IMG/VR virus record: IMGVR_UViG_2690316062_000005 | From: a virus | Taxonomy: Duplodnaviria; Heunggongvirae; Uroviricota; Caudoviricetes | Direction: 5' to 3' (one strand) | Length of the DNA: 44,255 nt | Part shown: in pieces, positions 13,766 through 27,695 of the stretch | How the letters are laid out: the number at the start of each line of letters is the position of its first letter | Position numbering within the stretch: position 1 is the first letter of the stretch | Made by a program: the position numbers and the translations under genes | Notes under the pieces: generated by a model | Databases searched by the model: none | What the model saw: only the letters and a program-made list of their open reading frames with translations | Told to the model about the DNA's origin: nothing

Positions 13766-14215
13766 ATGACAACTAACCACCCGGCGCACGGTCATGTATC
13801 ACTCGATCGCCTGCACCAGATACGCGAAATACTCAGCAACGCAGCAGCACAAAGCGACGGCGGTAATCTCGGCTACGCAATGGCTGATGCTGTGAAGGTG
13901 ATTGATGGAGTTCTGGAGTCGATGGCCCGTGAGCAAGTACGCCGTGAGCATGCTACATGGTCACAGGCTACTTTCGGCGATGTCGGTCCAGTTGGTCCGC
14001 TGAAGCACCTTTCCAAAGAAGCGCTCGAGGCGGCAGCTGAACCAAGTGACCTTACCGAATGGGCTGACATGCAATTCCTGTTATGGGATGCGCAACGTCG
14101 TGCCGGTATCAGTGATGAGCAGATTACCCTGGCGATGGTAGAAAAGTTGGCGGTTAACAAACAGCGCGAATGGCCTGAGCCGAAAGATGGTGAGCCGCGT
14201 CTGCACATCAAGTAG
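13766..14215 (+). CDS. Hypothetical phage protein (possibly MazG-like nucleotide pyrophosphohydrolase fold)
   Basis: 149 aa; EHATWSQATFG ... LKHLSKEALE ... EWADMQFLLWD resembles small all-alpha NTP pyrophosphohydrolase proteins of lambdoid phages; unverified. Confidence 0.4.
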   Translation: MTTNHPAHGHVSLDRLHQIREILSNAAAQSDGGNLGYAMADAVKVIDGVLESMAREQVRREHATWSQATFGDVGPVGPLKHLSKEALEAAAEPSDLTEWADMQFLLWDAQRRAGISDEQITLAMVEKLAVNKQREWPEPKDGEPRLHIK

Positions 14216-24180: not shown

Positions 24181-24822
24181 ATGGCAACGCTTAAGGACCT
24201 TTCCAGTCAGTTAAGACAGCTGCAGAAGCAAATACCGTTTGCGACTGCCCAGGCTATGACTAAAGTGGTTCGCCAGATAGAAGCGGCCCAAAAAACAGCA
24301 TTTGAGCGGAATCTGGATAATCCAACACCTTTTACAGTTAAATCGGTAGGGTCAGTTGGTGCCAGGAAAAACAGCCTTCGTGCGAAGGTGTTTGTTCGTG
24401 ATACTGCTGCTGGCTACCTTGAACCCTTCGAGTTCGGCGGAGAGCACAAGCTTAATGGTAGTGCTTTGCTTAATCCGAAAGACATAAAGCTTAATAAATA
24501 CGGCAACCTGCCGCGTAATAAGCTCTCTCAGCTCAAAGCAAAGCCAAACGTATTTATTGGTGACGTTGGTGGCGTGAATGCCGTGTGGCAGAGAAAAAAG
24601 CCGAAAATCAAAAAAGGGAAGAAACGGGCAAAACGTTCTCCGAACGGCACGCGCAGAGACAAGATTAAGCAACCTGCACCAAAATTGCTCATTCGGTTTG
24701 GAGACGCGCTTCCAGTCAAACCAACGCTCGGCTATATGGACAGGGCAAACACCATGGTCAACGCATTGTTACCCTCAGCGCTGCACCAGGCGATTGCTGA
24801 GGCGATCAGCTCGGCCAGATAG
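24181..24822 (+). CDS. Hypothetical protein with Lys/Arg-rich segment
   Basis: 213 aa; AGGAGG RBS; basic stretch QRKKPKIKKGKKRAKRSPNGTRRDKIK; immediately upstream of the cos/terminase region. Confidence 0.5.
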   Translation: MATLKDLSSQLRQLQKQIPFATAQAMTKVVRQIEAAQKTAFERNLDNPTPFTVKSVGSVGARKNSLRAKVFVRDTAAGYLEPFEFGGEHKLNGSALLNPKDIKLNKYGNLPRNKLSQLKAKPNVFIGDVGGVNAVWQRKKPKIKKGKKRAKRSPNGTRRDKIKQPAPKLLIRFGDALPVKPTLGYMDRANTMVNALLPSALHQAIAEAISSAR

Positions 24823-24913
24823 CCCCCCAGGGGTTTTGGGTCCTTCCTGAGCCTTTTGTAAGGCACGGGCATTGCGCGCCGCGGTGTTTTCCTAGCTACA
24901 ACTTTCAGATTTG

Positions 24914-25061
24914 TGTCCCATGTCCCACCTCTGGCGATCATTACGGACACCTCGCCAGCTCTGGCTATTCCAGTTTATTCCAGTGGGACATTCTGGTGGG
25001 ACATGGCAAAAATGTCCCAGGCGAATGTCCCACCCCAGAAAATGTCCCAGGTGATGTCCCA
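24914..25061. repeat. Array of eight TGTCCCA 7-mers (6 direct, 2 inverted) upstream of terS
   Basis: TGTCCCA at 24914, 24921, 25013, 25026, 25043, 25055; TGGGACA at 24984 and 24997; the last copy overlaps the terS start codon. Confidence 0.6.
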
Positions 25062-25630
25062 TGACCACGATGAACCAGAGTCAGTACGCACAACATTCAG
25101 GTGTGGATCGCAAAACAATTGGTCGGTGGATTAAAGCCGGGCGCTTCATTGTGATGGACGGAGACCTGATTGACGTAGAGGCCAGCGATGCGGCATTGAA
25201 GAAAAACCGCGATGGCAAAGACCCGCGCGCCTCGAACGCGAAGAAAAAGAAAACTCCCGTCGTTAGCGATAACGATGATGACGGTGATGAAATCAATAAA
25301 ACTGTCCGCCAGATAATGCTCACTGAAGGGGCAGATCTTTCGAGAGAGGAAGCGGGACGTATCCGCGAGAATTACATGGCCCTGCAGGCAAAGCTGCAGT
25401 ATGAAAAAGACAGCGGCCAGCTTATTGAGCTGACAGCAGCCGAGGAGGTTTTATTCAACGCCTTTCGCCAACAGCGTGATGCCTGGCTTAACTGGCCGTC
25501 CAGGGTGGCGCCGCTAATGGCTGCTGATCTGGATGTACCGGCGGACAGGATGACAGAGGTGCTGATTGAACATGTCCACAAACACATCTCAGTCCTCGGA
25601 GAGCCAGAGTTTAACCCGGCAGAAGATTGA
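25061..25630 (+). CDS. Terminase small subunit (Nu1-like)
   Basis: 189 aa; N-terminal HTH-like region (QYAQHSGVDRKTIGRWIKAG); position directly upstream of large terminase. Confidence 0.65.
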   Translation: MTTMNQSQYAQHSGVDRKTIGRWIKAGRFIVMDGDLIDVEASDAALKKNRDGKDPRASNAKKKKTPVVSDNDDDGDEINKTVRQIMLTEGADLSREEAGRIRENYMALQAKLQYEKDSGQLIELTAAEEVLFNAFRQQRDAWLNWPSRVAPLMAADLDVPADRMTEVLIEHVHKHISVLGEPEFNPAED

Positions 25631-27695
25631 GCGTCTTGAATTAAGCGTCCGCAAAGGCTGGACACCCCCGCCGCGTATCAGTGTGCCGCAGTGGGCAGAT
25701 GACTATCGTAAGCTGGCAAAAGAGGCTGGGAGCACTTCGGGAAACTGGGAAACATCGACGGTAGAAATTGCCCGCGGACCGATGCTTGCCGCGACGGAGT
25801 CCGGGGTTCATATCATCACTGTAATGTGCTGTACCCAGTTGATGAAGACAGCACTGCTGGAAAACCTTTTTGGCTATTTTGCCCACCTCGATCCTTGTCC
25901 GATACTGCTGCTGCAGCCGAAAGAAGAAGCCGCTGAACAGTTTTCGAAAGAGCGTATTAGCCCGCTGGTAAGGGTGACGCCGGTACTGCGTAAAATCATC
26001 GGTGATTCGAAACAGAAAAGCTCGAAAGAAACCATTCTTTACAAGGCATTCACTGGCGGATTTCTGGCGCTGGCGGGTGCTGGTAGCCCTGATAACCTTG
26101 CGCGTCGTCCGATTCGTGTCCTGCTGGCGGATGAAGTGGACAAGTACCCGATAACCCGCGAAGGCGATCCAATTGCGCTGGCCGAAGAGCGTACAGCGAC
26201 ATTTGGCCTGACCTGGCTGTCTGTACGCGCCTGTTCGCCGACGGTGGAGGATGAGAGCCGCATTGCTGACAGCTACGCCGACTCCGATCAGCGCCGGGCA
26301 TCTGTGGTTTGCCCGCACTGTGGCCACCGCCAGTTCCCCGACTTTTTCAAACACGTTCAGTGGCCGAAAGAGGGAGATAAACACCTGACTAAATCGGCGA
26401 TGCTCTATTGCGAATGCTGTGGTAGTGGCTGGTCCGAAGGACAGCGCCTCAGAGCTCTGCACACTATTCGATGGCATCAGACGCGCCCATTTGAGTGCTG
26501 CGGGGAGCGGCACTCACCGCTGATGGATTATGACCTTGCCTGGCGGGCGGCAGACGAGGGCAGCGTTGAAAAGGTCTGGCAATGGTCAGAGTCGGAACGG
26601 CATGCGGTCTATCGCGCAATCTGCCCCTCCTGTGGAAAGGAGGCAGTCGATAACCACCACGCGGGGTACCAGGCATCCAAGCTTTTCAGCCCCTGGCAAA
26701 AAGATAAGCCGTCGGATATTGCGAAAAAATATATCGATGCGAAGGGCGATCCGGATAAGGAACAGGCGTGGTGGAATACCCAGATGGGGCTTCCGCACCG
26801 ACCTAATCATGGGAAACAGCTCCCTGTTGATGTTCTGCTGGCGCGCCGGGAAATATTTCCGGCCGTCGTTCCGGACGGGGTGGCATTGTTAACAGCTGGA
26901 GTTGATACCCAGGACGATCGCTTCGAAATTACGATCACCGGCTGGGGGAGAGATGAAGAATCGTGGTCGGTCGCGCATGACGTTATTTATGGTGACCTTG
27001 AGACGGAAGAACCCTGGAAGCGACTGGATGCATACCTGAAACAGATCTGGCGACGTGGTGACGGGCGCGGCCTGAATATCATGGCAACGTGCATGGACTC
27101 CGGTGGCCACCATACGCAGAAGGTATACGAATTCGCCAAAGAGCGTCTTGGCCGTCGTGTCTGGGCAATTAAGGGGGAGTCTGCACAGGGAGGTAAACGC
27201 AATCCTGTCTGGCCGACCAAACGACCATCATCGAAAAGCAAAGCCAGTTTCCGCCCTGTCATTCTGGGGGTTAACTCAGCGAAAGACGTGATACGCGGTC
27301 GCCTGCATCTTGAGCCACCCAAACCTGGCGCCGCCGCTGCGGGTTATATGCATTTTCCTGACGATCGCGATCTCGGGTACTTCAATCAGCTGCTGGCGGA
27401 GCGACTGGTTTACAAAGTCATTTCCGGGCAGCGGTACAGTATCTGGGAAGCAATACCAGGACGAGCTAACGAAGCGCTTGACTGCCTCGTTTACAGCTAT
27501 GCCGCGCTGTGCGGTCTCAAACATATGGGGTTAAAACTCAACGTCCGGGCCGCCAACCTCGAAGCCGATCCGGATAAGTTCCTGCCAGCGCCAGTTGGAC
27601 AGGAAGAAAAAATCAATTACGAGCTGCCGGGTGCGGTTATTGAAGAACCAGCGCCGGTCAAACGTAAGCGAATATCGCAACTCCTGCCGAAATAA
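25572..27695 (+). CDS. Terminase large subunit (lambda gpA family)
   Basis: About 707 aa; gpA-like ATPase/nuclease architecture; start uncertain (ATG 25572 chosen; ORF opens at a TTG at 25566); overlaps terS end by 59 nt. Confidence 0.85.
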   Translation: MSTNTSQSSESQSLTRQKIERLELSVRKGWTPPPRISVPQWADDYRKLAKEAGSTSGNWETSTVEIARGPMLAATESGVHIITVMCCTQLMKTALLENLFGYFAHLDPCPILLLQPKEEAAEQFSKERISPLVRVTPVLRKIIGDSKQKSSKETILYKAFTGGFLALAGAGSPDNLARRPIRVLLADEVDKYPITREGDPIALAEERTATFGLTWLSVRACSPTVEDESRIADSYADSDQRRASVVCPHCGHRQFPDFFKHVQWPKEGDKHLTKSAMLYCECCGSGWSEGQRLRALHTIRWHQTRPFECCGERHSPLMDYDLAWRAADEGSVEKVWQWSESERHAVYRAICPSCGKEAVDNHHAGYQASKLFSPWQKDKPSDIAKKYIDAKGDPDKEQAWWNTQMGLPHRPNHGKQLPVDVLLARREIFPAVVPDGVALLTAGVDTQDDRFEITITGWGRDEESWSVAHDVIYGDLETEEPWKRLDAYLKQIWRRGDGRGLNIMATCMDSGGHHTQKVYEFAKERLGRRVWAIKGESAQGGKRNPVWPTKRPSSKSKASFRPVILGVNSAKDVIRGRLHLEPPKPGAAAAGYMHFPDDRDLGYFNQLLAERLVYKVISGQRYSIWEAIPGRANEALDCLVYSYAALCGLKHMGLKLNVRAANLEADPDKFLPAPVGQEEKINYELPGAVIEEPAPVKRKRISQLLPK

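Follow-up and report, generated by a model that had tools for sequence, protein, structure and literature searches.

The repeat array and its gene context

The IMG/VR record IMGVR_UViG_2690316062_000005 (Caudoviricetes), whose entire stretch of 44,255 nucleotides is referred to as the window, represents an Escherichia coli prophage with 100% sequence identity to strain ECONIH4. The prophage carries an integrase, RecE/RecT-type genes, and a methyltransferase. A lysis cassette, a lambda-type head module, and a contractile tail are encoded as well. The gene of the small terminase subunit TerS (terS) is overlapped at its 3' end by the gene of the large subunit TerL (terL), which is followed by gpW and a lambda-type portal. 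Directly upstream of terS, the heptamer TGTCCCA is repeated in both orientations. Judged from comparative sequence data, this array (24914-25061) is very probably the cosB element of a lambda-type cos site that also comprises a cosQ-like element and cosN (Table 1), and it would be bound by TerS.

The first-pass annotation of the window had described eight copies of TGTCCCA immediately in front of terS, a dense cluster ending on the start codon, and a repeat sequence different from the R sites of lambda. All three statements were borne out. An exact search located eight copies within 148 bp, six of them on the + strand (starting at 24914, 24921, 25013, 25026, 25043, and 25055) and two on the - strand (24984 and 24997). 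The copy nearest to terS (25055-25061) overlaps the start of this gene, its final base being the A of the ATG at 25061. Lambda possesses three 16-bp R sequences, whereas units of 7-9 bp are present eight times here (2 + 2 + 4). In total, TGTCCCA occurs 12 times in the window compared with an expected number of 5.63 +/- 2.40, and the four copies outside the array are scattered at about chance level. With eight copies per 150 bp, the cluster is the densest of all 7-mers in the window; the maximum reached by any 7-mer in 200 first-order Markov shuffles of the window was 3-5 per 150 bp. The repeat unit extends to (a)A-TGTCCCA, position -1 being an A in 81% of the 429 copies found in 58 unique related sites.

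All positions given in bp are counted from the predicted left end of the phage genome (bp 1, window position 24869). This numbering was chosen because a 12-mer at this position and its flanks are homologous to the mapped end of a related phage and because the lambda ends share the same skeleton (see below). The two inverted copies and the two following direct copies form an imperfect palindrome with arms of 22 nt (24983-25004 and 25012-25033), which are 86% complementary and lie 7 nt apart; the two copies within each pair are spaced by 13 bp. The Shine-Dalgarno sequence of terS (AGGTGA, 25049-25054) is located between the last two repeats, and the terS start codon is found at bp 193. Within the spacer between the second and the third repeat, the sequence TATTCCAGT occurs twice (24966-24974 and 24976-24984, 10 bp spacing) and abuts the first inverted TGTCCCA, from which it differs by two transitions. 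This section (bp 98-115) is near-invariant in the subfamily of the window, while the rest of the spacer is variable. The element might serve as a weak site for TerS or as one for a host factor. An RNA element was considered and rejected, since an Rfam scan of the region returned only a chance match to a microRNA (E 0.37).

Table 1. Features of the putative cos region and the adjacent terminase genes (window positions)
Feature	Position	Strand	Remarks
cosQ-like element GGGTCCTTCC	24838-24847	+	Predicted top-strand nick 31 nt downstream; contains GGGTCCT
cosN, predicted 12-nt 5' cohesive end GCATTGCGCGCC	24869-24880	+	Identical to cosL of phage BZS1
Spacer from cosN to the putative cosB, semi-conserved (GCGGTGTTTTCCTAGCTA...)	24881-24913	+	bp 13-45
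Repeats F1 and F2, abutting, TGTCCCATGTCCCA	24914-24927	+	bp 46-52 and 53-59; R3-equivalent
56-bp spacer, variable sequence	24928-24983		Holds the conserved direct repeat TATTCCAGT (two copies)
Repeats R1 and R2, inverted (TGGGACA on the + strand)	24984-25003	-	bp 116-122 and 129-135; R2-equivalent
Imperfect palindrome of R1-R2 and F3-F4	24983-25033		Centre near 25008
Repeats F3-F6	25013-25061	+	bp 145-151, 158-164, 175-181, and 187-193; R1-equivalents; near-invariant columns
Specificity cassette (repeat array and TerS residues 1 to about 120)	24901-25420	+	From the alignment of the window with prophage L007
terS	25061-25630	+	189 aa; PHROG 57 'terminase small subunit', E 4.6e-36
terL, gpA-type large terminase (ATPase and endonuclease)	25566-27695	+	Pfam GpA_ATPase 2.8e-64, GpA_nuclease 2.2e-78

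Position of the array relative to the predicted genome ends

Among isolated phages, the nearest are Serratia phage vB_SspM_BZS1 (BZS1) and Citrobacter phage phiNP, the TerL proteins of which are each 48% identical to that of the window. Neither megablast nor blastn searches of the region against the phage collection revealed a close isolate; the sole match was a 70-bp cos stretch of phiNP. In the linear BZS1 record, bp 1-12 (GCATTGCGCGCC) are annotated as cosL, and the identical 12-mer is present in the window at the position listed for cosN. According to the BZS1 paper, the 5' overhang was derived from virion reads with PhageTerm and confirmed with a polymerase chain reaction product spanning the prophage cos, which was compared to the ends of virion DNA (PMC7556043). 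The flanks of the 12-mer are homologous in the window and BZS1 on both sides (...GGGTCCTTCC-(16 nt)-CACGG / GCATTGCGCGCC / GCG..CTAGCTA...), and the 12-mer itself is 100% conserved in 29 unique relatives of the window's subfamily. Hence the prediction that cosN is nicked with a 12-nt stagger at 24869-24880 in this prophage. Contigs were also checked for ends lying exactly at the overhang; the few with an end in the vicinity of cos break off 14-35 nt beyond bp 1, which carries no information on the termini.

A similar skeleton is found in lambda. The sequence GGGTCCTTTCC begins 30 nt before the left end of lambda, and the GGGTCCT element of the window is positioned 31 nt before bp 1. GGGTCCT at 48473-48479 is presumably the lambda cosQ. 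The right flank of cosN in the window, GCGGTGTTTTCCTA, resembles the lambda sequence following the overhang, CGCGGGTTTTCGCTA. On the cosB side, the R3 sequence of lambda covers bp 50-65 and is the first in the series R3-I1-R2-R1, where R2 is the inverted site (Murialdo and Feiss, PMC9026076); R3 of N15 covers bp 48-60 (PMC9026076). The TGTCCCA array thus occupies the position of the lambda cosB relative to a cosN with a 12-mer identical to that of BZS1, which is the first argument for its assignment as cosB. The first-pass annotation had left the choice between cosB- and pac-type sites for TerS. The cosB part of this proposal is supported by position and by the co-variation, cassette exchange, and conservation described in the following sections, whereas a pac-type (headful) site was rejected because TerL is of the gpA type and the nearest characterized relative has defined 12-nt cohesive ends.

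Co-variation of the repeat with the TerS recognition helix

Of 5,426 complete E. coli genomes, 65 contained the region in a blastn search. A pattern scan for cosQ and cosN yielded 47 genomic loci and over 120 loci from IMG/VR, approximately 170 cos sites altogether. Most of the genomic loci belong to Enterobacterales; others were found in Chromobacterium, Aquitalea, Undibacterium, Caballeronia, Dyella, and Rhizomicrobium. For each locus, the dominant heptamer downstream of cosN was compared with a loose pattern of the recognition helix in TerS, the positions of which align with helix alpha-2 in the lambda small terminase Nu1 (residues 17-24).

In every locus with a detected recognition helix, the dominant heptamer corresponded to it. 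TGTCCCA was accompanied by V[D/N]RKT[IV]xRW in 76 of 79 loci (no TerS was found in the other three, L009, L010, and L043) and GGTAACA by VSRKTxTxWK in all 64 loci. The rarer heptamer TTCACAC was paired with [MI]SRR[SA]FYNWE (6/6 loci) and TTGACAC with MSRQALYxWE (3/6 loci, the helix search having found none in the remaining three). No helix was assigned by the search in the loci with TGTCCGC (0/4) and TGCGAAC (0/3). The geometry of the array was retained in the two major classes. In 54 of the 58 unique TGTCCCA-class sites, the array begins with a copy at bp 46-48, and in the GGTAACA class this copy begins at bp 47-49. FFRRFFFF is the commonest pattern of orientations (F, forward; R, inverted) both in the TGTCCCA class and in the long GGTAACA class. 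The latter is one of two forms of the GGTAACA class, comprising 6-8 copies in about 200 bp; the other, present in BZS1 and phiNP, has three copies in 75 bp with terS starting at bp 75.

A different arrangement was observed in Chromobacterium (L049, L143, and L146) and Rhizomicrobium (L065, L103, L145, and L165). Here, a single heptamer is located at bp ~45-52 and terS starts at approximately bp 56, while the other 4-7 copies, which read TGCGAAC or TGTCCGC and occur in either orientation, are internal to terS, about 160-240 bp downstream. The cosB of these loci would therefore continue within terS, where the coding sequence of the TerS linker is expected. A near-identical enterobacterial cos of the TGTCCCA class, together with its terS, was also encountered in a 226-kb contig assigned to the Gram-positive 'Vagococcus sp. 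WN89Y' (NZ_JBQPOM010000071.1, locus L140; protein P0006), which suggests that this assembly is mislabelled or contaminated.

Exchange of the array with the TerS N-terminus and conservation of the repeats

The alignment of the window with another E. coli prophage, L007, displayed approximately 100% identity over 24181-24900, 35-62% over 24901-25420, and 80-100% beyond 25420. The block replaced in L007 contains the repeat array, which consists of GGTAACA in the same layout, and the first 120 or so residues of TerS. The TerS protein of L007 has a BZS1-like N-terminus fused to a C-terminus of the window type; the C-terminal third, whose coding sequence overlaps terL, is common to both. It follows from this pattern of exchange that the array and the DNA-binding domain of TerS move as one functional unit. 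Two further junctions between E. coli prophages were noticed nearby, one at 24837/24838, shared by many of them, exactly at the left edge of the cosQ-like element (the matches H48-H66 start at 24837) and one at 24912/24913 just before the first repeat (the matches H78-H90 end at 24912). The cosQ-cosN core between them is thereby marked off as a block that can be exchanged on its own.

In the more diverged prophages L001-L006 (82-87% identity), the repeats are in place and the spacers have changed; at least five of the eight copies are exact in each, and all eight are exact in L001-L004. Among 29 unique sequences of the subfamily, the frequency of the majority base was 99.1% in the motif columns versus 83.5% in the columns between motifs (Mann-Whitney p 7e-9). 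As read from these alignments, the repeats appear to be under purifying selection against a background of diverging spacers.

The small terminase subunit

The gene terS is annotated as 'hypothetical protein' in RefSeq. The same applies to nearly all of the 228 clusters of TerS homologues, a family without a Pfam domain, and a dedicated family model for this small terminase would improve prophage annotation. The alignment of TerS with residues 1-50 of lambda Nu1 (hhalign) extends over residues 1-47 and reached a probability of 89.7% (E 1.8e-6). In the AlphaFold2 model (mean predicted local distance difference test score 69, about 79 in the N-terminal domain), residues 1-51 fold into a beta-alpha-alpha-beta-beta-alpha winged helix-turn-helix (wHTH), which is followed by a disordered linker (52-75) and a helical C-terminal part. 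The top match of this model in the PDB using Foldseek was 1j9i, the DNA-binding domain of gpNu1 (probability 0.93, template modelling score 0.57), with a non-significant E of 0.58; Xis, BldC, and RacA-type wHTH proteins were matched as well. A phmmer search of TerS against the PDB returned only RecA and ATPase matches, which were judged spurious. The first-pass annotation had expected a Nu1-like TerS with an N-terminal helix-turn-helix. The N-terminal wHTH does resemble Nu1, whereas the Pfam model of Nu1 failed to recognize the protein; TerS is Nu1-like in its architecture and not a demonstrable member of the Pfam family.

Directly upstream of the cos region, a 213-aa open reading frame (ORF; 24181-24822) belongs to PHROG 1924 ('minor tail protein') and is separate from the tail genes. 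It is found at this place in BZS1 (p72), phiNP, and many relatives, too, and its placement was commented on by the BZS1 authors (PMC7556043). A role related to packaging could be considered for this ORF.

Satellite islands and alternative readings of the array

The cos region was also present in two E. coli islands that share one gene layout and are inserted at different chromosomal sites. The first (L017/L187; NZ_CP027550.1, ~1656300-1673600) is approximately 17 kb in size with both ends seen, lies between rcnR and thiM, and carries an integrase at its left edge. The second (L016; NZ_CP070229.1, 3672880-3700990, with the cos near position 14000 of the locus) is situated beside tRNA-Ile/mug; the stretch read stops short of its left end. 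Genes for regulators, an Icd-like protein, a primase, SSB, and ProQ/FinO as well as PerC-type genes are present in both; genes for capsid, tail, and TerL were absent from the L016 and L017 islands. Each island ends in the same cosQ-cosN followed by seven exact copies of TGTCCCA and additional near-copies. No gene follows the array, just ~1-1.7 kb of sequence and then host DNA. These islands look like cos-type phage satellites of helpers of the TGTCCCA class, and copying of the array by satellites is expected if the array is the packaging address.

The islands furthermore encode a TerS-like protein of 177 aa (L017:9686-10216, + strand), which was assigned to PHROG 57 (1.8e-13) and matched the profile of the phage TerS with an hhalign probability of 98.3%. 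Its recognition helix, VTRTTVYKW, is unlike that of the phage protein. The preceding ORF of L017 (9309-9686, 126 aa) weakly matches the C-terminal half of the TerS family. As to whether the TerS-like protein acts in the manner of the TerS of Staphylococcus aureus pathogenicity islands (SaPIs) or in an Rpp-like manner, both are candidates. Like the known cos-type phage-inducible chromosomal islands (cos-PICIs), the islands are small integrative elements devoid of structural genes that carry a phage-like cosQ-cosN near one end (PMC6739421). In E. coli cos-PICIs such as EcCICFT073, the cosQ and cosN of the phage are kept and a different cosB is read by Rpp-TerS heterodimers (PMC6739421); the cosB of known PICIs is unlike that of the helper and has no repeated R sequences (PMC9026076). 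The islands described here differ in that they copy the TGTCCCA array of the phage and encode a full-length TerS-like protein.

With the satellites at hand, other readings of the array can be weighed. The array might be an operator or activator array for the late operon of terS and terL, bound by a phage regulator or an autoregulating TerS and not involved in packaging at all. Helix-turn-helix proteins occupying such arrays, with repeats in direct and inverted orientation, are typically regulators, to which the additional wHTH matches of the TerS model would fit, and the last two copies bracket the Shine-Dalgarno sequence of terS and overlap its start codon. However, no sigma-70 promoter-like or terminator-like site was detected in 24600-25300 by a promoter and terminator scan, the array starts at a fixed distance of 46-48 bp from the cosN end across subfamilies, it co-varies and is transferred together with the DNA-binding domain of TerS, and in the satellites it precedes no gene. 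The alternative of a transcription factor array, which the first-pass annotation had mentioned, is therefore unsupported, and we consider it improbable. A secondary regulatory effect of TerS bound over its own ribosome-binding region could nevertheless accompany a cosB function.

Even less probable is that the array is read by a satellite-encoded or other hijacking protein of the Rpp-like or TerS-like kind, or only by a heteromer of such a protein with the phage TerS. The satellites with the same array do encode their own TerS-like protein, and Rpp-TerS heterodimers are established for the cos-PICIs of E. coli (PMC6739421). Still, the phages themselves possess the array in conserved form (58 unique versions), and it co-varies with the recognition helix of the phage TerS, as expected of the phage's own cosB. 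Finally, iterons of a replication origin or a centromere-like partition site beside the packaging genes, conceivable from the short repeats in both orientations, their spacing of ~12-13 bp, and the A-rich stretches, can hardly be entertained: the neighbors are lysis genes, the PHROG 1924 ORF, and the terminases with no adjacent initiator or ParB gene, the repeat type follows the TerS helix rather than any replication gene, and nothing beyond the array and the N-terminus of TerS lies within the boundaries of the cassette.

Probable assignment as cosB and proposed mechanism

Three independent lines of comparison favor the assignment of the array as cosB. Besides its position, these are the one-to-one co-variation of the repeat with the recognition helix of TerS and its exchange together with the N-terminal domain of TerS as one cassette, and the selective conservation of the repeats against diverging spacers and their copying by cos-bearing satellites. 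A comparison with the cos regions of related phages, which the first-pass annotation had named as a check, is thus in support of cosB through the 12-mer of BZS1, the co-variation of repeat and helix at about 170 sites, and the swap in L007.

Several observations weigh against this assignment. The closest phage with mapped ends shares just 48% TerL identity with the window and belongs to another repeat class. Since the scan demanded cosQ and cosN, the cosQ-like element is invariant by construction and the relatives were pre-selected for the scaffold; moreover, many of the loci are closely related, and the locus counts overstate the number of independent events. For TerS, a Pfam search at E <= 0.001 gave no match, the Nu1 model (Phage_Nu1) included, and the best Pfam matches were HTH_28 and HTH_17 (E about 0.13-0.15). 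The comparison of the TerS profile with the PDB did place lambda TerS, the Nu1 DNA-binding domain, RppC, and other TerS chains on top, but with non-significant E values of 0.06-0.36, and the Foldseek match to 1j9i given above was non-significant as well. With regard to integration host factor (IHF), no match to the consensus WATCAANNNNTTR with two or fewer mismatches was found in the 56-bp spacer of the window, unlike I1 of lambda. A weak match with two mismatches lies on the - strand at 24899-24911 (bp 31-43), and the corresponding match is better in some relatives (0-1 mismatches). Side-by-side binding of two wHTH domains is difficult to square with the 7-bp spacing of the abutting repeats F1 and F2, so that one heptamer per domain may not be the actual unit of recognition.

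On the basis of these comparisons, the following sequence of events may be envisaged. Late in infection, the N-terminal wHTH domains of TerS would bind the (A)ATGTCCCA units, that is, the abutting pair at bp 46-59, the four-site palindrome at bp 116-164, and the two further direct copies extending to the terS start. The complex of TerS and DNA would anchor TerL at a fixed distance over cosN, which the gpA-type enzyme is predicted to nick with a stagger of 12 nt, generating the 5' overhang GCATTGCGCGCC. TerL would then stay on the end bearing cosB and package rightwards through terS and terL, and the upstream cosQ would serve termination at the next cos. The binding of the heptamers by TerS, the cutting at 24869/24880, the stoichiometry, and any role of IHF are all inferred in this scheme.

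A more far-reaching model is speculative, and we regard it as doubtful. It supposes a protein-only scaffold in which one TerS domain occupies each heptamer, eight TerS are templated by the array, and the bend introduced by IHF is replaced. Repeat and helix would form "address label" cassettes (at least four, possibly six heptamer-helix pairs) on an invariant cosQ-cosN, and the satellites would mimic the label directly, not in the way of Rpp.

Significance and comparison with known packaging systems

If the array acts as cosB, both the element recognized in packaging and the probable ends of the genome are defined for a widespread group of enterobacterial prophages. The constant cosQ-cosN scaffold, the matched pairs of heptamer and helix, and the natural cassette swap constitute a comparative system for studying how Nu1-type wHTH terminases read DNA, which is difficult in lambda, where TerS binds weakly in vitro. 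Satellite islands bearing this cos would be mobilized by these phages, which bears on horizontal gene transfer in E. coli.

The underlying principle, a common cosN with the specificity residing in cosB and the TerS N-terminus, is already established for lambda, 21, and N15. New are the sequence and multiplicity of the repeats (2 + 4 + 2 heptamers), the mimicry by satellites, and the breadth of the family, as is the apparent absence of an I1 site. A prior description of TGTCCCA repeats was not found in the literature, and the 12-mer was encountered only in the BZS1 paper, whose passages on termini and terminase do not mention the repeats (PMC7556043).

BZS1 and phiNP share with the window the 12-nt cohesive end, the homologous cosQ-like element and flanks, and the PHROG 1924-type ORF upstream. 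They differ in their cosB, which consists of three GGTAACA copies at bp 48-73 in front of a terS starting at bp 75, and in the N-terminus of TerS, which is of another class (27-30% overall identity to the TerS of the window). Both long (R3-I1-R2-R1) and minimal forms of cosB, the latter with the single R3 of N15, exist among lambda-like phages (PMC9026076), and the three-copy GGTAACA form is reminiscent of N15. In the specificity classes of lambda/phi80, 21, N15, and Gifsy-1, cosN and cosQ are common, while cosB and the DNA-binding domain of TerS differ and define the specificity (PMC9026076). In comparison with these classes, the phages studied here have a different cosN and a different TerS family, and at least four heptamer classes tied to a helix were defined from sequence alone, with hosts ranging from Enterobacterales to Chromobacterium and Rhizomicrobium.

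The closest parallel in layout is the cos region of lambda itself. The order of cos, terS, an overlapping gpA-type terL, gpW, and a lambda-type portal is the same. The first repeats are located at bp 46-59 compared with bp 50-65 for R3, the middle sites are inverted like R2 and the distal sites are direct, and terS starts at bp 193 compared with bp 191 for Nu1. In contrast, the 12-nt overhang is GCATTGCGCGCC instead of the lambda sequence GGGCGGCGACCT, the repeat units are shorter and more numerous as outlined above, an IHF site of the I1 type is not convincing, TerS remains below the Pfam threshold for Nu1, and the virion of this prophage is contractile-tailed, unlike that of lambda.

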